64,000 nt of DNA from an uncultured Gammaproteobacteria bacterium (GTDB lineage Bacteria > Patescibacteriota > Microgenomatia > JALYQM01): NCBI GenBank assembly GCA_964403585.1, contig CAYOFQ010000001.1, positions 1,152,826 to 1,216,825 on the forward strand. Reading direction: 5' to 3'. The position numbers and the translations under genes are program-made. Positions 10,667 through 44,550 of this stretch are shown here, in pieces; positions within the stretch are counted from its first letter, which is position 1, and the number at the start of each line of letters is the position of its first letter. The notes beneath the pieces are model-generated. The model searched no databases. It saw nothing but the letters and a program-made list of their open reading frames with translations, and was not told the DNA's origin.

Positions 10667-10856
10667 ATTCTCATGAGTCTTGGTCAGAACCTAACTTTAA
10701 AAGATAGAAAACTGCATATTGATCTGCATAAACCACTACTGTTCATTGAAGAAATCAAATTATCTGAAAGGTCAGTTTATGAAGGGTTAGAACCTGAAAA
10801 AGAAAGCATTAATAAGCCATTATTAGAGAAATTATGGACTGAGAATCCAAGTGTGT

Positions 10857-10925
10857 TGCCGGACTAGGATTCGAACCTAGAAAAACGGATTCAGAGTCCG
10901 TTGTGATACCGTTTCACCATCCGGC
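10857..10925 (-). tRNA. tRNA-Gln (anticodon CUG), compact 69-nt form
   Basis: Canonical GGTTCGAATCC T-arm, anticodon loop CUCUGAA, acceptor GCCGGAU/GUCCGGC, discriminator A; no CCA encoded; D-arm short. Confidence 0.6.
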
Positions 10926-11063
10926 AGTAAAACACTGACGCCTATAGTACCACAAAAACCCCAGTCCAGGCAACACAGAAGCGGTAAGATAGGTTCAGTT
11001 TACTGTATTCCTTGGGACGGATTTTCTCTTTATAATCTTATGAGAATGTGATAGTATCGATGT

Positions 11064-13393: not shown

Positions 13394-14521
13394 ATGGCTT
13401 CACGTCTAACTACCACCGCCGATGCAACCAAAAAAGGTGCTATTTTCTTAGGAATTGGCATAATTGCCTTTTTTGTGCTCAGATTTACACTCACCGCTGC
13501 CTATAATGCCTGTTGTGTCCGCCCAACACCTACACCGACCCCATACATCAACCCGGCGTATGGAGTGCTTGAAGCACCGTTATTAGTCGATGGAACTACC
13601 ACCAGTGCCGGTAAAAAATTTGTTCTGGAAACCATTGACGGCAACATCCCCGAAGGCACCTCCAGCGCCATGGTCTATGAAGTAGAGAAAAAAAGTGCCG
13701 AACTCGACTACCAGCAGCAATCACTATCACTCGCTGAAAATTTAGGCTTCCGCGGCGCCAGACCGGTAAAAAACACCGATCGGACATTCCTCTTTACCGA
13801 CCAGAATGATCCCAACCGTAAGATCGAAATTGATTTCATCTACTATAATATGAACTACTCCTACGATAACCTTGCGGCATACGTATCTTTGGAACGAAGC
13901 ATTACCCCAACCATTGAACGGGCGAAACAGGACGCATTAAACTTTGTCAGCAACGCACGACCTGATTTACGCAATACCCGCGGTATCTTGGAACTTGAAA
14001 CACCGGCCAAAGGCAATTTTGTCTACTTTGACCCCACCACACAGATAACAACACCGGTTGCCTCCCAACTTCAGGCAAACCTTACCAAAGTAAATATTCC
14101 ACGCATGCCAATCTATGACATTCCGTTTATTAGTCCATATATCAATAAGAGTTTAATAAACTTCACTTTTACCGGAGTAACCACCAGTGCCAATTCACGC
14201 GATTTTCAAAATAGAATGTTAAGTGCCGAAATTGTCTACTGGCCTATTAACAACTCGCCAAATGTATTAGGTGTATATCCAACCCGAAGCACACAGCGAG
14301 CATGGGAATTACTCAACCAGGGCAAAGCCATTGTTTTAAGTCCTTCAAACCCAGGCGACGAATATAATATCCGAAAAATTTATCTCGCCTATTATGAACC
14401 ACCAACGTATCAACCATATATTCAACCGGTCTGGGTATTTGAAGGCGACAAACCAACCGACAGCAACTTCCTCTTCCGCGCCTTCGTTCCTGCAGTGCAG
14501 GAAGGGTATGTGAAGGAATAA
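13394..14521 (+). CDS. membrane-anchored extracytoplasmic hypothetical protein
   Basis: N-terminal TM helix, then a PTPTPTP linker, then a roughly 300-aa domain with no recognised motif. Confidence 0.45.
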   Translation: MASRLTTTADATKKGAIFLGIGIIAFFVLRFTLTAAYNACCVRPTPTPTPYINPAYGVLEAPLLVDGTTTSAGKKFVLETIDGNIPEGTSSAMVYEVEKKSAELDYQQQSLSLAENLGFRGARPVKNTDRTFLFTDQNDPNRKIEIDFIYYNMNYSYDNLAAYVSLERSITPTIERAKQDALNFVSNARPDLRNTRGILELETPAKGNFVYFDPTTQITTPVASQLQANLTKVNIPRMPIYDIPFISPYINKSLINFTFTGVTTSANSRDFQNRMLSAEIVYWPINNSPNVLGVYPTRSTQRAWELLNQGKAIVLSPSNPGDEYNIRKIYLAYYEPPTYQPYIQPVWVFEGDKPTDSNFLFRAFVPAVQEGYVKE

Positions 14522-15650: not shown

Positions 15651-16979
15651 TTATTCTTCCGACATCTGAGACAGTCTAAAATCAATCCGCTCCATATCAC
15701 GCGGGAACATTGCTGCTTCACGAATATTTTCCAGTTCCAGAATCTGTTTGGTTATTCGCTCAGCCCCGAAGGCAAATCCCCCTTCCGGAGGTGCTCCGTA
15801 TTTAAACGCATCAAGAAACATCCGTACTTTCTCGGGATCCATATTCCACTCTTCGACATGTTTCATCAGCTGATTATAATCATTGATACGTCGACCTCCG
15901 GATAACCACTCTACACCCCGGCAAAGAAGGTCCATACCTTCGTTGTATTCAGGCTCTTCCGGATTGGGATACACATAGAACGGTTTTTTCTTGGTTGGAT
16001 ATCCGTACACAAACACCAGATCGGATCCGGTTTCTTCTTTGATAATTCGGCAAAGCTCACGCTCATCTTCAGGATTTAAGTCTTTTTCACCACGAACATC
16101 ACGCCCGTTTTTAGCAAATATCTTTTCCTGAGCTTCACGTAAGCTTAAGGTAGGTGTTTTTTCAATCGTTGCCGGAATCTCCACACCAAACAATGCAACT
16201 TCCTTGGCACACTTTTCACCAACCTGCTGCAAAATATATTTAACTACCCCGTCAGCCATATCGCGCACATCGGTCCACGATTCAATAAATCCCATTTCGG
16301 CATCCAGCGATACAATCTCAGTCAAGTGACGTGTAGTGACAGAAGGTTCTGCCCGGAATACTTTGTTAACGGAAAAAACGCGTTCGAAAGCTGTCATGAC
16401 AATCTGTTTATACAATTGTGGACTTTGCGTAAGATAGGCTTTTTTATCAAAGTACTCAACTTCAAAAACCTCCGCTCCACCTTCAGCGGTTGCCGGTGCA
16501 ATCGCCGGCGCCTGGAATTCAAAAAAGTCATGTTGTTTCATGTATTCCCGGAAAGCATCAATCACAACTTCCTGCACTTTGAAAATCGCCTGTACACGCG
16601 GGTGTCGCAAAGTTAATGCCCGGTGATCCAGGAGTGTCGGTAATTCTACATCCAAGACATCCTTTGACATATCAAACGGCAAAGTCGCTGATTTTGCCAA
16701 AACCGTATACTCTTCCACATCCAGCTCAATCTTACCCGTCTCTAAGTCAGGGTTGATTGCTTTTTCCGAACGATTCTTAATCGTTCCAACAATTTGCACC
16801 ACATCCTCTTTACCCAACTCCGACATCTTCTGGTAACCAACCAGTTGAATCTTCCCTGAACGGTCACGTAAATCTATGAAAGTCAACTTACCATGGTCAC
16901 GCTTGGTATCGACCCATCCTTTAAGTAATACCTTTTCGCCTACCTTTCCGGTAGTTTCCCGAACTAATGTTCTTTCCAT
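15651..16979 (-). CDS. class IIb aminoacyl-tRNA synthetase: aspartate--tRNA ligase (archaeal/type-2) or asparagine--tRNA ligase
   Basis: N-terminal OB fold; motif 2 FRAE; QSPQLYKQ; motif 3 GFAFGAERI; 442 aa. Asp versus Asn specificity cannot be resolved by eye. Confidence 0.85.
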   Translation of the reverse strand: MERTLVRETTGKVGEKVLLKGWVDTKRDHGKLTFIDLRDRSGKIQLVGYQKMSELGKEDVVQIVGTIKNRSEKAINPDLETGKIELDVEEYTVLAKSATLPFDMSKDVLDVELPTLLDHRALTLRHPRVQAIFKVQEVVIDAFREYMKQHDFFEFQAPAIAPATAEGGAEVFEVEYFDKKAYLTQSPQLYKQIVMTAFERVFSVNKVFRAEPSVTTRHLTEIVSLDAEMGFIESWTDVRDMADGVVKYILQQVGEKCAKEVALFGVEIPATIEKTPTLSLREAQEKIFAKNGRDVRGEKDLNPEDERELCRIIKEETGSDLVFVYGYPTKKKPFYVYPNPEEPEYNEGMDLLCRGVEWLSGGRRINDYNQLMKHVEEWNMDPEKVRMFLDAFKYGAPPEGGFAFGAERITKQILELENIREAAMFPRDMERIDFRLSQMSEE

Positions 16980-16984
16980 AAAAC

Positions 16985-17165
16985 CTCCTAAATACTAAAA
17001 AAGCCCTTATAAAATTACCTAAACGATAATTATATAAGGGCGCTTTTCGCGCGGTGCCACCTTACTTTGTGCTCATTGACGGCTATAACGGGCGTTCCCG
17101 GAGAGTTCTACTACCAAGAAGGGTTCTTCTCTCAGCTCACCTGTGTCGCAGGGTCATTGCTTTTC
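16985..17165 (-). promoter_or_regulatory. T-box riboswitch leader of the Asp/Asn-tRNA synthetase gene
   Basis: Minus-strand AAGUAAGGUGGCACCGCGCG (T-box core GGUGGNACCGCG) at 17048..17067, overlapping the 5' arm of a terminator GCCCUUAUA...UAUAAGGGC + U6 (16996..17041). The T-box 5' half mimics the terminator 3' arm. Candidate -35 TTGTTC / -10 TATACT at 17197..17170. Confidence 0.65.
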
Positions 17166-17373
17166 ATTGAGTATACCATACATTGTTATAAGAACAAGAA
17201 AGACATAGTAAAATAGTCGATATTTCTTACCCAGATAGCGCTAAAAACCCCTTTAATTGACAAAATAAGTTAAAATAGTATAATATCCTATAATATAAGT
17301 ATATAAGGATAACTAAGCGACAGTAACCAAATTATGCAGTAATAGGGGTATATAAGTATCCTTAGTTCCAGCC

Positions 17374-17400
17374 TTGACAAAAGGATCTGTGTACTATAAA
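17374..17400 (+). promoter_or_regulatory. candidate sigma70 promoter (TTGACA-N15-TATAAA) for the 17619 gene and its leader
   Basis: TTGACA at 17374..17379, TATAAA at 17395..17400. Confidence 0.35.
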
Positions 17401-17549
17401 AATAGTCTGTTATATGATTAATAACTCAGTTTCTACCAATTACCTTAACCTCAATCTCATTAATTACGGGATTCGTAATTTTGCGTTTATTCATGCAAAA
17501 AAGCAAAGGGGGTAAGTTTTTAAACGCTAAACCGAATAAAACAGACCAA

Positions 17550-17575
17550 ACCCCCTCAACAAAGGGGGTTTTTCC
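17550..17575 (+). terminator. intrinsic terminator/attenuator in the 5' leader of the 574-aa gene
   Basis: ACCCCCU-CAACAA-AGGGGGU followed by UUUUUCC; upstream AAGGGGG (17506..17512) can alternatively pair with CCCCCU. Confidence 0.5.
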
Positions 17576-17618
17576 GTTAAATATAGGAGTAATTTAACAG
17601 GATAGAGAAAGTACAAAT

Positions 17619-19343
17619 ATGAGCGTAGAGACAAATAATCGCTATAAAACCTTTGATTCTCAATTGCTTTTAGGCAATACGGGAATCTTTGGTCGCCGCC
17701 GGGAAGATACTCTTCCCCTCTACGCCCCTTTGAACAGAAAGTTGGCCGATGTTCGTCCATATACCCGAATGAGAATCGACGGCCAAGACTACAATGCAAT
17801 TTCCGACTTCCGTACCGTGCGATCATTATTAAATGACTTAATTCCGACGCAGGCAGATATAATTCGTTGGGGAGTAACCCACCCGGACATCGTACATAAA
17901 CACCAGTCCGAGTATATCGGGGCTCTTTCAGCTCAATCCGTTCGACAACCCGGAGAAAAGTTAAATATAGCTGAGGCCATATTAGCCATCAATAGTCAAA
18001 ATGAAATCCTCCAAGAAGTTGCTCGTGACAATTTAATTCGGATTATGATGGAACGTCATGGATTTAACCCTAATGATGAATGTGATAGTGAAAAATTCAA
18101 CCAATACCTATTACAAGGCACTAGAGTAGCCGACGAACTCATCAACGAAGAACGCGATTTTCTAACCCCTGTTTGGGAAAAATCATCACTCCCTACCGTA
18201 ACAGAATTACAGGAACAAGTTAAAACTGATAATTTGTACACATTAATCCGATTCGCAACAAATCCTCGTGCAACCGCAAAAATACGTGAAGAAGCAACAC
18301 GAAAAGCAGTATTAATTGACCAAGCGATAGCGGCTATCTTGCGGATTGAGTCCGCAAACGGAACCATTGAAGAGGTTCATAAAGTTCTTGATGCCCACTT
18401 ATGGGAAGAAGAACAAATTGGCGAAATCCAACTCCGTGGTATTGTAATGACCCATGATGTTCGTACAGAACGATGCTTGTCTTGGGAAATCTACGATCCA
18501 CAAAAGCACGGCGCTCGTGGAAGTAGACTTCCCAAAGGTGAAACCTGGGTACAAAGATACTATGAAATGCCGTTCCACCAAATAATTCATAACGAGGAAC
18601 AACTCCAGATCCTAATGACCAGTCGAAAAAAGGAAGACGTCGCAACTCTTGCAAAATTACTCTTGAAAAACGGTGAACTCCCTGAAGATATCCGTGGAAT
18701 CCGATTCGTAGTCGATAGTCCTGAGCACGCAAAGTTGTTATCACAGCTCCTGGTTAATGCATTTCATAAATCAGGTTGGTTGCTAATGCCACAAGAGAAA
18801 GGACAAACTTTAACCCTCACTGGAGGTTTCAGCATCGAGCTAGCTGATGGGACTCACTGCGAATTTGTTCCTCCAGATGAAGTTATCAATCAAGCCAAAA
18901 GTAGCGGATTCGGCGTATTGCAATTTGATGCCCAAGTTGAAGCAGCAACTCCAACAGCACAACACACGTTACACCCAATGAAACAATTTGAGGTTCAAAT
19001 ATTCTCGATTGCCTCACTCAGAAATTCCCAGCGAGAATGGGAAATCGGTGATCCTAAACCAAATTTTCATGCCGGATATGTTTTGACAAAACGGTTCTTC
19101 GAGCGAAGGATAATCCTAGACCAGTTTGGTAACCCGGCAACAGCGGACAACTACTACACGCGATTATTCCCGGATTGGTATCTAACACGAATACAACAGA
19201 GAAGAGACGAAACAGACGTAGATAGAGCATCCCGTATCAGAACAATGCTAGATTCAGAGGAACAACCATTCAGATTAATGCTTATAGAAGGAGCTCACCG
19301 CCGTATTAGAGATGAGAGCTCAAACCGCTACATCCCATACTAA
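17619..19343 (+). CDS. hypothetical 574-aa protein with a possible divergent RelA/SpoT-like (nucleotidyltransferase) core
   Basis: Long uninterrupted ORF. Central region carries SRKKEDVATLAK, PEDIRGIRFVVD, GGFSIEL and FEVQIFS..REWEIG, which align in order with GRAKHMYSLWKK, ADLIAVRVIL, NGYRSLHT and MEVQIRT..AEYGIASH of the genuine Rel in this window. Confidence 0.45.
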   Translation: MSVETNNRYKTFDSQLLLGNTGIFGRRREDTLPLYAPLNRKLADVRPYTRMRIDGQDYNAISDFRTVRSLLNDLIPTQADIIRWGVTHPDIVHKHQSEYIGALSAQSVRQPGEKLNIAEAILAINSQNEILQEVARDNLIRIMMERHGFNPNDECDSEKFNQYLLQGTRVADELINEERDFLTPVWEKSSLPTVTELQEQVKTDNLYTLIRFATNPRATAKIREEATRKAVLIDQAIAAILRIESANGTIEEVHKVLDAHLWEEEQIGEIQLRGIVMTHDVRTERCLSWEIYDPQKHGARGSRLPKGETWVQRYYEMPFHQIIHNEEQLQILMTSRKKEDVATLAKLLLKNGELPEDIRGIRFVVDSPEHAKLLSQLLVNAFHKSGWLLMPQEKGQTLTLTGGFSIELADGTHCEFVPPDEVINQAKSSGFGVLQFDAQVEAATPTAQHTLHPMKQFEVQIFSIASLRNSQREWEIGDPKPNFHAGYVLTKRFFERRIILDQFGNPATADNYYTRLFPDWYLTRIQQRRDETDVDRASRIRTMLDSEEQPFRLMLIEGAHRRIRDESSNRYIPY

Positions 19344-20743
19344 ACCTGCTCTAAGATTCTTTTTTCAAGGTATTCTTTTGTATTCTTGGCAGGATCATCC
19401 AGAACTTCTTCAAATAACTGATTAAGCGTTTGTCCAATTTTCGGTCCGGGAGGAATAGCGAGAATACGCATGACATCACGCCCATCAATAGCCAAATCCT
19501 TCACGGTAAATGTTGGCATCAGCAATGTTTCAATGCGCTTTTTGAACTCTTTCAACCGCCAGCCTTCCGGGTCCTTGGTTCCGCTCCCTAAACGATCACC
19601 AATGCGCACATCAACCATATCATTAATATTTTCCACCCCGACCTTCCGGATAAACCGCCGCACCGCCGCATCGGTCTGAATCGTATCTACACTAAACATA
19701 TGATGACGCACCAGAGTGTACAACTTCTCGCGGTCTTTTTTTGACAAGTGTAATCGCGCAGCAATAGCACGAACCATTTTTCCGCCCACTATATCGTGAT
19801 TATAAAAAGTATTGATACCGTCACGCACTTCATGCGTAACCGGCTTACCGATATCATGTAACAGTGCCGCCAAACGGACAATGCCGTCATTGGAAGGACA
19901 ATGTCTCAACGCATTAAGACTATGCTCAAAAACATCAAATACATGATGACCTCGCTGATCAAGACCCCGACCGGCGACCAGTTCAGGCAAAATAAACTTG
20001 AGTAGCCCCAGGTCGTCCAATAAATGAACTCCCTCATAAGCGCGATCCGACTTAATCACTTTCAGCAACTCATCACGAATACGCTCTCCCGAAATATACT
20101 GGATGTTTTCACTTTTCTGCTTAATTGCCTCAGCTGTTTTTTCCTCAATTGCAAAACCAAGCTGACAAGAAAAACGGACTGCACGTAACATGCGCAACGC
20201 ATCTTCATGAAACCGCTCGCTCGCTACACCAACTGCGCGGATAACCTGCCGCTGAAGGTCAACCAATCCACCATAGGGATCAATCAAGACAAACTCACCA
20301 ACTCCCAGACGAACCATTCCTTGCGAATCCTCACTAACACCGGATAAAATATCTTTCTCAATTCGCAACGCAATTGCGTTAATAGTGAAATCCCGCCGTA
20401 ATAAATCGTCTTCAATGGAATCTCCCCAGCTGACCGAATCCGGACGTCTGAAATCAGTGTATGAACCCTCACTGCGAAAAGTTGTGACATGAACGACAAT
20501 CGGATCCTCAACAACACGCATAACAACGCCAACCGTACCAAAAGAGTTGTCATAGAACGTCTCTTCAAAAAGCGCCTGCACTTGTTCCGGAGTAGCATTG
20601 GTGGTAACATCCCAATCATTCGGTTCTTTATTCAGCAATACATCCCGGACCGGACCGCCAACAACATATCCTTCATAGCCTGCCGCAGCAAGCTTTTTTA
20701 GCGTTATCATAATATAATGAGGAACAAAGATATCCGAAGCCAT
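19340..20743 (-). CDS. cca: CCA-adding enzyme / tRNA nucleotidyltransferase with C-terminal HD domain
   Basis: Pol-beta head GGPVRDVLL...DWDV, RxD motifs, HD domain LLHDIGKP; 467 aa. Confidence 0.85.
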   Translation of the reverse strand: MASDIFVPHYIMITLKKLAAAGYEGYVVGGPVRDVLLNKEPNDWDVTTNATPEQVQALFEETFYDNSFGTVGVVMRVVEDPIVVHVTTFRSEGSYTDFRRPDSVSWGDSIEDDLLRRDFTINAIALRIEKDILSGVSEDSQGMVRLGVGEFVLIDPYGGLVDLQRQVIRAVGVASERFHEDALRMLRAVRFSCQLGFAIEEKTAEAIKQKSENIQYISGERIRDELLKVIKSDRAYEGVHLLDDLGLLKFILPELVAGRGLDQRGHHVFDVFEHSLNALRHCPSNDGIVRLAALLHDIGKPVTHEVRDGINTFYNHDIVGGKMVRAIAARLHLSKKDREKLYTLVRHHMFSVDTIQTDAAVRRFIRKVGVENINDMVDVRIGDRLGSGTKDPEGWRLKEFKKRIETLLMPTFTVKDLAIDGRDVMRILAIPPGPKIGQTLNQLFEEVLDDPAKNTKEYLEKRILEQV

Positions 20744-23615: not shown

Positions 23616-25706
23616 ATGATCACCGCCCAGGAAATCATCGATACCGCCAGGAAAAAACGTAAAAATATTGATGAGGCGAACATCAACCGCGCCTACCGTT
23701 ATGGCTTTAAATCACATGAAGGTCAAAAAAGAAAATCCGGCGAACCGTTCTTTATTCATCCGGCAAACGTTGCCCTGATTGTCGCCGAAATGGGATTGGA
23801 TGACGCCTCAATTATTGCCGCACTCCTGCATGATGTTGTTGAAGATACTCAGGTACCGATTGAAGAAATTGAGCTAGCTTTTGGAAAAGACGTTGCCTCA
23901 TTGGTACAAGGTGAAACCAACCTTGGTCTTCTTAAGTTTATCTCCGAAGACCGCCAGGAATATCTTGTCGAGAATCTGCGCAAAATGTTTTTAGCCATGG
24001 CCAAAGACATCCGGGTTGTTCTCATCAAGCTCGCAGATCGTCTACACAACATGCGAACCATGAAATACATGCCGCCTGAAAAACGTATTCGTAAGTCTAA
24101 GGAAACCCTCGAAATATACGCACCACTCGCCTCCCGACTTGGAATGGGACAGATGCGCGGCGAACTGGAAGATCTCGCATTCCAATGGGTTTATCCGAAA
24201 GAGTATGAAGAGTTAAAAGAACAAACCAGAGTTCTTTTTAAGGAAGGCAACCGTTATATCTCGGTGGTAAAACGAAAATTGCAGGATGCGCTGAATCAGG
24301 AAAACATTGATGCCGGAGTTGAAGGCAGGGCTAAACACATGTACTCATTATGGAAAAAACTGCAACGGCCTGAATTTAATAATGATATTACTAAGATCGC
24401 CGATCTAATCGCAGTTCGGGTTATTCTGAATAACGAAAGTATTGAAAATTGTTATGTTGTTCTCGGATTAGTACACCAGATCTGGACACCATTAGCCGGG
24501 CGCGTCAGCGATTATATCGCTGTCCCCAAAGCCAACGGGTATCGAAGTCTTCATACCAAAGTATTTGTGGAAAAAGGCCGGGTAATGGAAGTTCAGATTA
24601 GAACCCGGTCAATGCATGAACAAGCCGAATACGGTATTGCTTCACATATTATTTATGAGCAGGCAAAAACCAAACGTGGTGTTACCGATACTGAAGTAGA
24701 TGAAGGATTCAAAGCCTCGAAGGAACAATTACAGTGGATTCAGGAACTCACCAAGTGGCAAAAAGAAGAACCTGACAGTCAGGGATTCTTAAAAGGACTA
24801 AAACACGATTTGTTCAAAGATCGAATTTTTGTATACACCCCTAAAGGCGATGTTAAAGATTTACCGCTCGGCGCTACACCCGTAGATTTTGCTTATGCTA
24901 TTCACTCGGAAATAGGGAATAAGACAGTCGGCGCTAAAGTAGACAGCCATATTGTCCCGCTCAACTATCAACTGCGTAATGGTGAAATCGTCGAGATTCT
25001 TACGGCTAAAGAGAAGAAAGCTCCCTCATCCGACTGGCTGCAATTTGTCATTACCAATAACGCCCGTAAACAAATTCAAAAAGCAGCTAACATAAACGAA
25101 CAAAGGACTGAAAAAGAGCTCGTCGAAGCAGACTTTGAACCGGCCACTCACACGAAACGTTCGGATGATTTCCCCGATGCTACTCCGAGTTCCTCTTTAC
25201 TCAATCCGATGTCGATCGTCGGAAAGGTCCAAACCGCCCTTAAAAATCGCTGGTACAAAAAACAGGTTACCAGTAAAGCAGCCGTAGTAGTCCACGGCCT
25301 GCACGGAGTAGCAACCCGTTTGGCAAAATGTTGTAATCCCCTCCCCGGTGAAGAAATCGTTGGATTTGTAACCCAAACTCAGGTAGTATCCATCCACAGT
25401 GCTATTTGTCCAAATGTTTCCAATATCATTCATAAGGAAAAACAAATTCCGGTAACGTGGTCACTACCCGAAGGAATGGTCAAAGCCCAACGCATGAAAG
25501 TAGAAATGACCTATCGCGAAGGCGCATTACGGGATATCACCAAAGCCTTATCCGATATTCGGGTTGCCATTGAACAATTCGAACAGCTCCCGGCCCACGA
25601 CGGAATACTAAAAATTCAGTTTGTAGTAGGATTGGAATCGGACAACCAGCGACAATTACTCTATTCCCGGTTACAAAAAGTTCGCGGTGTACAGTCGGTA
25701 GAATAA
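23616..25706 (+). CDS. relA: bifunctional (p)ppGpp synthetase/hydrolase (long RSH: HD-synthetase-TGS-ACT)
   Basis: HD motif ALLHDVVEDT; synthetase motifs GRAKHMYSLWKK, DLIAVRVI, YRSLHT, EVQIRT; TGS and C-terminal ACT; 696 aa. Confidence 0.9.
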   Translation: MITAQEIIDTARKKRKNIDEANINRAYRYGFKSHEGQKRKSGEPFFIHPANVALIVAEMGLDDASIIAALLHDVVEDTQVPIEEIELAFGKDVASLVQGETNLGLLKFISEDRQEYLVENLRKMFLAMAKDIRVVLIKLADRLHNMRTMKYMPPEKRIRKSKETLEIYAPLASRLGMGQMRGELEDLAFQWVYPKEYEELKEQTRVLFKEGNRYISVVKRKLQDALNQENIDAGVEGRAKHMYSLWKKLQRPEFNNDITKIADLIAVRVILNNESIENCYVVLGLVHQIWTPLAGRVSDYIAVPKANGYRSLHTKVFVEKGRVMEVQIRTRSMHEQAEYGIASHIIYEQAKTKRGVTDTEVDEGFKASKEQLQWIQELTKWQKEEPDSQGFLKGLKHDLFKDRIFVYTPKGDVKDLPLGATPVDFAYAIHSEIGNKTVGAKVDSHIVPLNYQLRNGEIVEILTAKEKKAPSSDWLQFVITNNARKQIQKAANINEQRTEKELVEADFEPATHTKRSDDFPDATPSSSLLNPMSIVGKVQTALKNRWYKKQVTSKAAVVVHGLHGVATRLAKCCNPLPGEEIVGFVTQTQVVSIHSAICPNVSNIIHKEKQIPVTWSLPEGMVKAQRMKVEMTYREGALRDITKALSDIRVAIEQFEQLPAHDGILKIQFVVGLESDNQRQLLYSRLQKVRGVQSVE

Positions 25707-32757: not shown

Positions 32758-32832
32758 GGTGCGGTGGCAGAGTGGCCAATTGCAACGGTTTGCAAAACCG
32801 TAAAACCGCCGGTTCGAATCCGGCCCGCACCT
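32758..32832 (+). tRNA. tRNA-Cys (anticodon GCA)
   Basis: Acceptor GGUGCGG/CCGCACC, anticodon loop UUGCAAA, T-arm GCCGGUUCGAAUCCGGC, discriminator U; no CCA encoded. Confidence 0.8.
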
Positions 32833-33043
32833 CCGAGCCTTTCCGCTTTACTAAGAATTAAGGGCGAAGGACCCCGTGAGTCATGCGAGCGGGGTCAAAC
32901 GAGAAAGCTTCCTTTTTACTTTCAACTGCTTGAGGGACCCTGAGCGCAGCGAATGGGTCGAGAGCCTTTCCTATTAACTATCAATCTGCGGGTATCAAGC
33001 GCTCGCATTTGCACAACGTTTCTCCATCTGGTAGCATTTAACT

Positions 33044-44475: not shown

Positions 44476-44476
44476 G

Positions 44477-44550
44477 TGGCTATTATTGGACTCGAACCAA
44501 TGACCTCTTCGATGTGAACGAAGCGCTCTAACCAGCTGAGCTAAACAGCC
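44477..44550 (-). tRNA. tRNA-Val (anticodon CAC)
   Basis: GGCUGUUUAGCUCAGCUGGUUAGAGC...CUUCGUUCACAUCGAAG...GGUUCGAGUCC...AAUAGCC A; no CCA encoded. Confidence 0.8.

Follow-up and report, generated by a model that had tools for sequence, protein, structure and literature searches.

A divergent protein with an RSH synthetase-type domain and a predicted attenuator leader at a conserved housekeeping locus

What is a protein of 574 amino acids (aa) that resembles no obvious family doing among housekeeping genes, 4 kb away from a canonical Rel? The question is raised by a 64,000-nucleotide stretch of DNA (the window) from the 1.57-Mb contig CAYOFQ010000001.1 of assembly GCA_964403585.1, an uncultured bacterium placed in the Patescibacteriota, and by the gene at 17619..19343 on its forward strand, which is defined by its open reading frame (ORF) and translation and starts with ATG. 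A first-pass annotation, made from the letters and their translations, had seen in the product of this gene, called the target here, a cryptic synthetase core of the RelA/SpoT type. The results described below suggest that the target is probably a very diverged, lineage-restricted member of the RelA/SpoT homologue (RSH) superfamily, and that it would act as a pyrophosphokinase gated by an attenuator, with an acceptor that is perhaps not GDP or GTP.

The synthetase-type domain and its active site

The label of orphan which the first-pass annotation gave to the protein comes close to the truth, with the correction that about 20 relatives were found. A word-indexed search of 5.8 billion proteins returned three of them, with 66, 52 and 46% identity to the target, and when 1.84 billion cluster representatives were searched exhaustively with HMMER and a four-sequence profile, 19 proteins were returned at E ≤ 1e-3. 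When the word-indexed search was repeated with a 21-sequence alignment, one sequence was gained. The family has about 21 members in all, and the 21-sequence alignment is about 20% identical to the target. Scans of genomes, metagenomes and viral contigs gave no relatives of the target beyond one genome that was known already.

That no known family is obvious for the target agrees with the curated libraries, as neither Pfam (at E ≤ 10) nor NCBIfam has a match for it, and a sequence search of the PDB with the target or with a four-sequence profile found nothing. BLASTP of the target against the Rel of the window likewise gave nothing in the synthetase region, which means that the pairwise resemblance between the two proteins is not significant; it is significant only with family profiles and structure. 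A BLASTP match of the type ‘ETLxxYAPL’ between residues 26-43 and the C-terminus of the Rel HD domain (E 0.06) was put down to chance, being unconserved in homologs and out of linear order.

The proposed RSH synthetase-type (SYNTH/toxSYNTH-like) nucleotidyltransferase domain comprises residues ~327-500 and is encoded at 18597..19118 (+). The profile PF04607 (Pfam RelA_SpoT), which had been suggested as a check, gave a divided answer: the target itself has no match, but five of the 21 members match over the aligned region with sub-threshold scores (13.7-24.4 bits, best E 3.8e-5). The gathering score of 27 bits is therefore reached neither by the target nor by these five distant members, and no Pfam family other than PF04607 recurs among the 21. 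Searches with the family as a profile are more telling. Trimmed to target residues 190-505 and compared with 177,635 distinct PDB sequences, the family profile ranked (p)ppGpp synthetases in all of the top 13 places (Rel, RelA, RelP/YwaC, RelQ/YjbM), the best with E 8.8e-4. Against the synthetase domains of 120 diverse long RSH proteins, hhalign gave a probability of 88% and a P of 2.8e-6 over 105 columns, which run from the strand before R-x-K through E-V-Q-I-R-T; as controls with the same query, the HD domain of Rel gave P 0.19 and its C-terminal half P 0.14.

Structure prediction points in the same direction. The AlphaFold2 model of the full-length protein, built from four sequences, is poor, with a predicted local distance difference test score (pLDDT) of 53. 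The model of residues 190-505, built from 21 sequences and without templates, reached a pLDDT of 77 and a predicted template modelling score (pTM) of 0.72, and when it was searched against the PDB with Foldseek the top 24 structures were all RSH synthetase domains (RelP, RelQ, SMU.1046c, Rel, RelSeq, CapRel, RelA), with a probability of up to 1.00. The cryptic synthetase core is thus borne out by the sub-threshold PF04607 matches, by the ranking in the PDB and by hhalign against its controls, and the structural check that had been proposed turned out in its favour as well. Residues ~327-500 very probably adopt the RSH synthetase fold, as judged with the help of the model.

The residues that had been proposed as catalytic are also the invariant columns of the family. 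K338, K346, D357 and E458 occur in 21 of 21 sequences and are joined as invariant columns only by E199 and E225; R336 is found in 20 and K350 in 19 of the 21. The key codons are those of R336 (18624-18626), K338 (18630-18632), K346 (18654-18656), D357 (18687-18689) and E458 (18990-18992). The Mg-binding Asp and the catalytic Glu that the first-pass annotation had pointed out, D357 and E458, are accordingly both present throughout the family. Other positions are less strictly kept, namely G360 (16/21), Q460 (17/21) and T/S463 (16/21); the Arg of E-x-Q-x-R-T is Phe462 in the target, and the Ser position of R-x-K-x3-S-x3-K is Ala342, with Ser in nine of the 21 members. In characterised RSH enzymes, the counterparts of R336, K338, K346, K350, R362, D357, E458 and Q460 hold ATP and the catalytic Mg2+.

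Four motif pairs had been drawn between the target and the Rel of the window, and three of them stand in profile-profile register. SRKKEDVATLAK of the target corresponds to GRAKHMYSLWKK of Rel, which places R336, K338 and K346 on R-x-K...K; EDIRGIRFVV corresponds to ADLIAVRVIL, with D357, G360 and R362 on D-x-x-A/G-x-R; and FEVQIFS corresponds to MEVQIRT, with E458 and Q460 on E-V-Q. The third pair in the original order was mis-registered: GGFSIEL (residues 402-408), taken for the G-loop, aligns instead, in one of two registers of low confidence, to the strand RFKDYIA that precedes the G-loop. In both registers the counterpart of the G-loop sequence A-N-G-Y-R-S-L-H is S428-S-G-F431-G-V-L-Q435. 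Further towards the C-terminus, H484 and Y487 plausibly represent H-x-x-Y-K if a 6-7 residue insertion is allowed for, the register being set by manual spacing where there is no confident alignment.

It is at the G-loop that the family departs from known enzymes. With low alignment confidence in this part, the column of the Tyr holds R in nine, L in five and F in four members (F431 in the target), the column of the His holds Q in 11 and K in 10, and S428 is present in 18 of 21. As far as the alignment can be read, the donor side of the active site (ATP, Mg) appears conserved and the acceptor pocket appears rebuilt, with the conserved S428 and Q/K435 replacing Y-x-S-x-H. CapRel needs its G-loop Tyr to bind substrate and to function (PMC9712102), and because this Tyr is not conserved here the acceptor may differ from those of known RSH enzymes. 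The best guess, and a tentative one, is a small nucleotide rather than tRNA. This guess comes from the acidity of the protein (pI 5.9 for the whole protein and 6.3 for the synthetase domain, in a family ranging from 5.1 to 9.4, all of them values of bulk charge only), as opposed to the highly basic groove that accommodates the CCA end in the toxic small alarmone synthetases (toxSAS) that target tRNA (PMC11559606).

The rest of the protein is less easily read. The N-terminal region, residues 1-326 (17619..18596, +), has no recognised fold and is helical, followed by a β-meander at ~271-326; in addition to the invariant E199 and E225 it carries a conserved H-D-x-x-T motif at 279-283. The C-terminal tail, residues 501-574 with the stop codon (19119..19343, +), is predicted to be helical by a model of low confidence here, and its R-Y-I-P-Y ending is kept in the alignment by the closest clade only. 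The first-pass annotation was right that Pfam finds no HD, TGS or ACT domain in the target, and no pseudo-HD is detectable either. Its further remark, that the architecture lies outside the long RSH, small alarmone synthetase (SAS) and known toxSAS layouts, is consistent with these results. Long RSH proteins combine HD (or pseudo-HD), SYNTH, TGS and ACT/RRM domains, a set which the target does not have. The classical SAS (RelQ/RelP/RelV) are single domains of ~200-250 aa that match the RSH hidden Markov models (HMMs), while the target has extensions of ~330 aa at the N-terminus and ~75 aa at the C-terminus. The toxSAS operons have an antitoxin gene in bicistronic or overlapping arrangement, or a fused C-terminal antitoxin, and the window has no adjacent co-directional small gene. 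An HMM-based census divides the superfamily into 30 SAS, 11 small alarmone hydrolase (SAH) and 13 long-RSH subfamilies (PMC7229694). The family described here is probably new within the RSH superfamily when judged on its escape from Pfam, its architecture, the non-canonical G-loop and the attenuator.

The leader, the variable slot and the hydrolase-motif partner

How the gene may be controlled is suggested by the sequence upstream of it, where promoter, leader ORF and two alternative hairpins follow each other closely. A promoter-like site found by consensus scan (TTGACA-18 nt-AAAAAT, 17374..17403, +) lies ~10 nt before the start of a leader peptide ORF of 33 codons (17414..17515, +), which reads MINNSVSTNYLNLNLINYGIRNFAFIHAKKQRG followed by the stop. 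With its ATG ~10 nt past the -10 element, the leader mRNA may be nearly leaderless. The final codons of the ORF, AGG GGG TAA, overlap the 5' arm of an anti-terminator (AGGGGGT, 17507..17513, +), which according to a 7-locus alignment copies the 3' arm of the terminator and can pair with ACCCCCT at 17550-17556. The terminator-like hairpin itself, found by terminator scan at 17548..17573 (+), consists of AAACCCCCT-CAACAA-AGGGGGTTT followed by T5 and lies 45 nt before the start codon of the target.

These elements are shared by the loci of the relatives, which are given L numbers in the following. L003, L007 and L021 keep both TTGACA and the AGTCTGTTATATG downstream of it, and leader ORFs that end in R-G-stop occur in six loci, among them L001/L010, L003, L005, L007 and L021, with N-Y and R-x-F/I as common motifs. 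In RNAfold predictions the terminator hairpin of the window has -14.2 kcal/mol (z -2.8), and it is kept in seven of seven orthologous leaders; the anti-terminator hairpin has -12.4 kcal/mol in the window, -12.0 in L001 and -19.8 in L020, with the two alternative hairpins predicted for each of three divergent loci. The three elements have been altered together in L020, from GAGGGG/CCCCTC/GAGGGG to GGCGG/CCCGCC/GGCGGG. The 5' region as a whole, from the promoter through leader ORF and anti-terminator to the terminator, is kept in seven loci even at ~25% protein identity, and the leader is better conserved than the target protein. Rfam gave a weak match to Phe_leader at 17452-17577 (E 0.017), with no riboswitch or leader above threshold in the 5' region, and the four loci retrieved with a DNA pattern for the attenuator were all unrelated. 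The attenuator-type leader which had been claimed for the target is thus upheld by the conservation of promoter, leader ORF and alternative hairpins, and sequence and folding together suggest that a conserved leader-peptide transcription attenuator controls the gene.

The locus is as constant in its position as it is variable in its content. The flanking housekeeping genes are, in order, GluRS, a 375-aa protein, D-Ala-D-Ala carboxypeptidase (Dac), Asx-tRNA synthetase (AsxRS), the target, the CCA-adding enzyme, RecJ, Rel and glycogen synthase, and the gene order is identical around relatives of the target down to 19-25% identity, so that the position of the target 4 kb from Rel is conserved as well. 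The host lineage is rare and deep, because the Rel of the window has only ~17 relatives of at least 55% identity among 5.8 billion proteins, followed by a fall to ~42% (Bacillota and others). The family of the target is confined to this lineage, always in the same chromosomal slot; in size it roughly equals the lineage, and it has the look of a core gene at a fixed position.

The conservation of the neighbours does not extend to the target. Between L007 and the window, the target proteins are 27% identical, against 88% for Rel, 89% for AsxRS, 81% for Dac, 78% for RecJ and 75% for the CCA-adding enzyme. In L005 the target stands at 46%, with 84% for Rel, 75% for RecJ and 73% for the CCA-adding enzyme, and in the closer L001 at 66%, with 87% for Rel and AsxRS, 80% for the CCA-adding enzyme, 78% for RecJ and 77% for Dac. 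At the nucleotide level (blastn), homology between the window and L007 extends to 17180 and returns from 19358, just beyond the stop codon of the target. From the AsxRS leader to the CCA gene, homology is limited to a segment of 83% identity at 17397-17443, which spans the promoter and the start of the leader ORF; none is detectable across the coding sequence. This indicates a divergence limited to the target gene, by diversifying selection or cassette exchange, and what diversifies is possibly a sensing function of the N-terminal ~330 residues. The family is absent from the phage records and viral contigs searched, and PADLOC-DB 2.0, when queried with the target, three of its relatives, the five partners and the downstream gene, gave no meaningful match; a Cas2e match of P0011 (E 0.0036) was spurious.

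Between the Asx-tRNA synthetase gene and the family member, five of the related loci carry a divergently transcribed partner gene of 331-811 codons. By synteny these genes, all on the reverse strand, are located at 5283-7589 in L001, 3193-5628 in L007, 5781-7745 in L003, 3883-5754 in L021 and 237-1232 in L005, and most of the products are large (623-811 aa). Pfam recognises HD_4 in three of the five and nothing in the other two, and the H...HD...ED...D...N constellation of the hydrolase is invariant in all five. A profile of the partners matches the N-terminal halves of Rel proteins (E ~1e-30) and runs into the start of the synthetase domain; in the two largest partners the R-x-K...S...K motif looks degenerate, as in ‘RRPDYLEIHEQ’. 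The long partners have ~350 extra C-terminal residues with no detectable match, and a TGS-like segment noticed in them by eye found no support in Pfam or in the PDB profile search. By their motifs, the long partners look like hydrolase-active, synthetase-dead paralogs of long RSH proteins. They diverge fast, with 24% identity between the partners of L001 and L007. HD-type hydrolases are known to reverse the products of toxSAS, both alarmones and tRNA pyrophosphate (PMC7229694, PMC11559606).

In the window, this part of the slot is empty. Synteny and the blastn boundaries against L007 delimit ~216 nt of unrelated sequence (17181..17396, no strand) where the relatives carry the partner, and the partner is absent also at L020. 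Inside this stretch, ~130 nt upstream of the leader promoter, stands a perfect sigma-70 consensus (TTGACA-16-TATAAT, 12/12) at 17257-17284 (+). On the other side of the family member, towards the CCA-adding gene, L001 (9710-10972, +) and L003 (9715-10950, +) have a gene for 411-420 aa with weak similarity to thymidylate kinase (PF02223, E ~1e-3). This gene is absent from the window, L005, L007 and L021 and has no relation to the gene for 405 aa that follows P0018. It was rejected as a constant part of the system, being found in two relatives only, and may be a third, optional element of the variable slot.

Proposed function and rival explanations

Taken together, domain and leader allow a mechanism to be proposed. 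The target would be an active pyrophosphokinase that transfers the β,γ-pyrophosphate of ATP to a 3'-OH; the acceptor may be other than GDP or GTP, and with a small nucleotide in this role the product would be of the alarmone type. A ribosome that reaches the stop codon of the leader would cover the anti-terminator arm, upon which the terminator would form and transcription would end. By contrast, a ribosome that stalls earlier, on the conserved I-R-N-F-A codons 22-36 nt upstream of the arm, would leave the arm free and permit read-through into the target gene, and the enzyme would thus be made under conditions of impaired translation. In most relatives, the partner with its intact hydrolase motif would probably act as the eraser of the same pyrophosphate. 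In the window, because the partner is absent, the nearest candidate eraser would be the HD domain of the canonical Rel, the sole RSH hydrolase domain found there by Pfam and tblastn.

Several observations weigh against the target being such an attenuator-gated enzyme, whose activity is a predicted one. Pfam is silent both for the whole protein and for residues 301-500, as is NCBIfam for the target; no link at the level of sequence rises above a curated threshold, sequence gives the second half of the domain, taken alone, only weak backing (P 0.003), and the E-values from Foldseek are modest (2e-3 and weaker, none ≤ 1e-3). In the active site R362 is kept in 13 of the 21 members, and the Y-x-S-x-H G-loop with its acceptor-stacking Tyr is missing from the target, while the spread of pI in the family makes the argument from acidity a weak one. 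For the attenuator, the support consists of a single covarying lineage together with sequence and folding. Finally, the sole match of tblastn with the partners in the 64-kb window was the HD domain of Rel, and a partner may lie elsewhere in the genome.

The same facts can be read in other ways. It is possible, though doubtful, that the target is a toxSAS-like toxin or anti-phage effector that pyrophosphorylates tRNA at its 3'-CCA end or produces (pp)pApp, with the large, variable N-terminal region as an autoinhibitory sensor, as in CapRel but in the opposite domain order, and the HD partner as a type IV antitoxin. Such a role would suit the extreme divergence of the coding sequence between conserved flanks, with its sharp boundaries, and the variable content of the slot, where there is a partner of 331-811 aa or none and, in two loci, an extra gene of 411-420 aa; the hydrolase neighbour recalls FaRel/ATfaRel and the SAHs that reverse toxSAS products (PMC7229694, PMC11559606), and fused sensor-toxin RSH proteins offer a precedent (PMC9712102). 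However, a gene that occupies the same housekeeping slot throughout a lineage appears to be core rather than mobile, and the lack of PADLOC matches for target, partners and downstream gene, like the lack of relatives in phage records or on viral contigs, speaks against defence. The partner is divergently transcribed and not part of a bicistronic or overlapping operon, and it is absent in the window and in L020 despite intact catalytic residues of the presumed toxin. An acidic protein (pI 5.9) also fits poorly with the basic tRNA groove of toxSAS, and a leader-peptide attenuator is atypical for toxin-antitoxin or defence genes. An unlikely extension of the preferred reading is a new RSH writer/eraser pair. 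Its writer would be a pyrophosphokinase induced by stalling, with an acceptor other than GDP/GTP, ATP or tRNA CCA, such as a cofactor, another nucleotide or an RNA end of a different kind; its eraser would be a dedicated long-RSH paralog without synthetase activity, and the divergence would result from an arms race, for example with proteins of phages or competitors that are sensed by the N-terminal domain.

Another explanation, which seems quite unlikely, is a housekeeping, lineage-specific analogue of SAS that makes ordinary (p)ppGpp beside Rel and diverges fast under relaxed constraint outside the active site. The RSH fold with its conserved ATP and metal residues and the conserved position 4 kb from Rel can be accommodated by it, as can a stress-linked transcriptional control, SAS enzymes being regulated at the level of expression. 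But Y-x-S-x-H has lost both its guanine-stacking Tyr and its His to other residues, which makes the pocket unlike that of known (p)ppGpp synthetases; 27% identity between flanks of 75-89% far exceeds ordinary relaxed constraint for an enzyme; and neither a 330-residue N-terminal region nor a dedicated hydrolase partner is a feature of SAS. It is highly improbable that catalysis has been lost altogether, that is, that the target is a pseudoenzyme or scaffold which binds a nucleotide or partner, or, in a variant of this idea, that it resembles nucleotidyltransferases in general and not RSH specifically. Curated HMMs do fail to detect it, the Tyr of the G-loop is lost and R362 is variable, and degenerate RSH domains exist, as RelA shows with its pseudo-HD and, apparently, the partners with their degenerate synthetase motif. 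Against this, a family with ~20% identity keeps without exception the two acidic residues that bind metal and three basic residues that bind triphosphate, and without catalysis this is hard to explain.

The preferred reading of the target as a divergent pyrophosphokinase under attenuator control can be set beside characterised systems, each of which resembles it in part. RelQ and RelP (SAS1/SAS2; PDB 5DEC, 6EWZ, 6FGK) have R-x-K...K, D-x-x-G-x-R and E-x-Q in the same order as the target and, like it, are stand-alone synthetases without HD, TGS or ACT. They are, however, proteins of ~210 aa, as compared with 574 aa and the ~330-residue N-terminal region of the target, which also differs from them by the missing PF04607 match, the replaced Y-x-S-x-H of the G-loop, the attenuator upstream and the extreme divergence between close relatives. 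In toxSAS with hydrolase antitoxins (FaRel with the SAH ATfaRel; the phage SAH PaSpo), as in L001, L003, L005, L007 and L021, a gene of the synthetase type adjoins one of the hydrolase type able to reverse its product (PMC7229694, PMC11559606). In contrast to FaRel/ATfaRel, the genes of the relatives are divergent and not operonic, and most partners have 623-811 aa, the largest resembling hydrolase-only long-RSH paralogs instead of small SAHs; the target, moreover, has no partner in the window, lies off mobile elements and has no match in the defence library. CapRel (PDB 7ZTB, 9ERV) shares with the target the combination of an RSH synthetase-type domain and a large, possibly regulatory domain in one polypeptide, and fast evolution of the target would suit a sensor role. 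Unlike in CapRel, the synthetase domain of the target is C-terminal (the order is reversed), the essential G-loop Tyr is not conserved, the protein is acidic and the pseudo-ZFD of CapRel was not detected.

A division of labour as in RelA and SpoT is also seen in this lineage, where synthesis and hydrolysis are split among the canonical Rel, the partner with its hydrolase motif and the synthetase-only target. The target nevertheless differs from RelA/SpoT in that it is no long RSH and has no detectable pseudo-HD and none of the TGS/ACT ribosome-sensing C-terminal domains. For the leader, the closest likeness is to those of trp/pheA and to the ribosome-stalling ones of resistance genes, with a short upstream ORF, mutually exclusive hairpins and a stop codon inside the anti-terminator arm. 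In the leader of the target there is no run of codons for a single amino acid, and the peptide itself is conserved (N-Y...R-x-F...R-G-stop), which makes it more like an arrest peptide. In a full-text literature search, no relevant account of leader-peptide attenuation for small alarmone synthetases came up.

These results have consequences beyond the locus. Because Pfam RelA_SpoT is blind to the family, HMM surveys have probably missed it, and the superfamily may be larger than its census, at least in poorly sampled lineages. Before (pp)pApp synthesis and tRNA pyrophosphorylation were discovered in other divergent RSH enzymes, the pattern was the same, an intact donor site next to a rebuilt acceptor pocket, which makes the target a candidate for further chemistry. 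The attenuator, if confirmed, would couple the status of translation directly to the expression of an enzyme of the alarmone type. The fast-evolving RSH partner paralogs deserve study as a new long-RSH-like group, and the 27% identity between flanks kept at 75-89% poses an evolutionary question.

Neighbouring genes and other features

The canonical long Rel, which served as context, is encoded at 23616..25706 (+); Pfam finds HD_4, RelA_SpoT, TGS and ACT in it. Next to the target lies the convergent CCA-adding/HD gene (19340..20743, -), and the two genes share CTAA at 19340-19343, where their stop codons overlap, as the first-pass annotation had stated. Its statement that the tRNAs of the window depend on CCA addition is likewise in agreement with all three tRNA genes present, none of which encodes the full CCA: Gln-CTG (10855-10926, -), Cys-GCA (32758-32834, +), which has CC only, and Val-CAC (44476-44550, -). 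The link to tRNA that had been drawn from this adjacency did not hold up, because synteny across the lineage takes in the entire neighbourhood and adjacency is therefore not evidence. With an intervening gene in two relatives besides, the CCA-adding neighbour was rejected as a functional clue.

The 375-aa protein of the flanks (13394-14521, +) has no match in Pfam or NCBIfam; every related locus has it in synteny between the genes for GluRS and the carboxypeptidase, with identities to the window of 62% in L001, 41% in L003 and 25% in L020. Upstream of the divergent class II Asp/Asn-type tRNA synthetase gene (15651-16979, -), Rfam reported a sub-threshold T-box at 17033-17166 (-), with 47.5 bits against a gathering score of 93 and E 2.9e-9, possibly a divergent form typical of the host lineage. 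The G+C content of the window is ~32-46%, mostly 40-46%.

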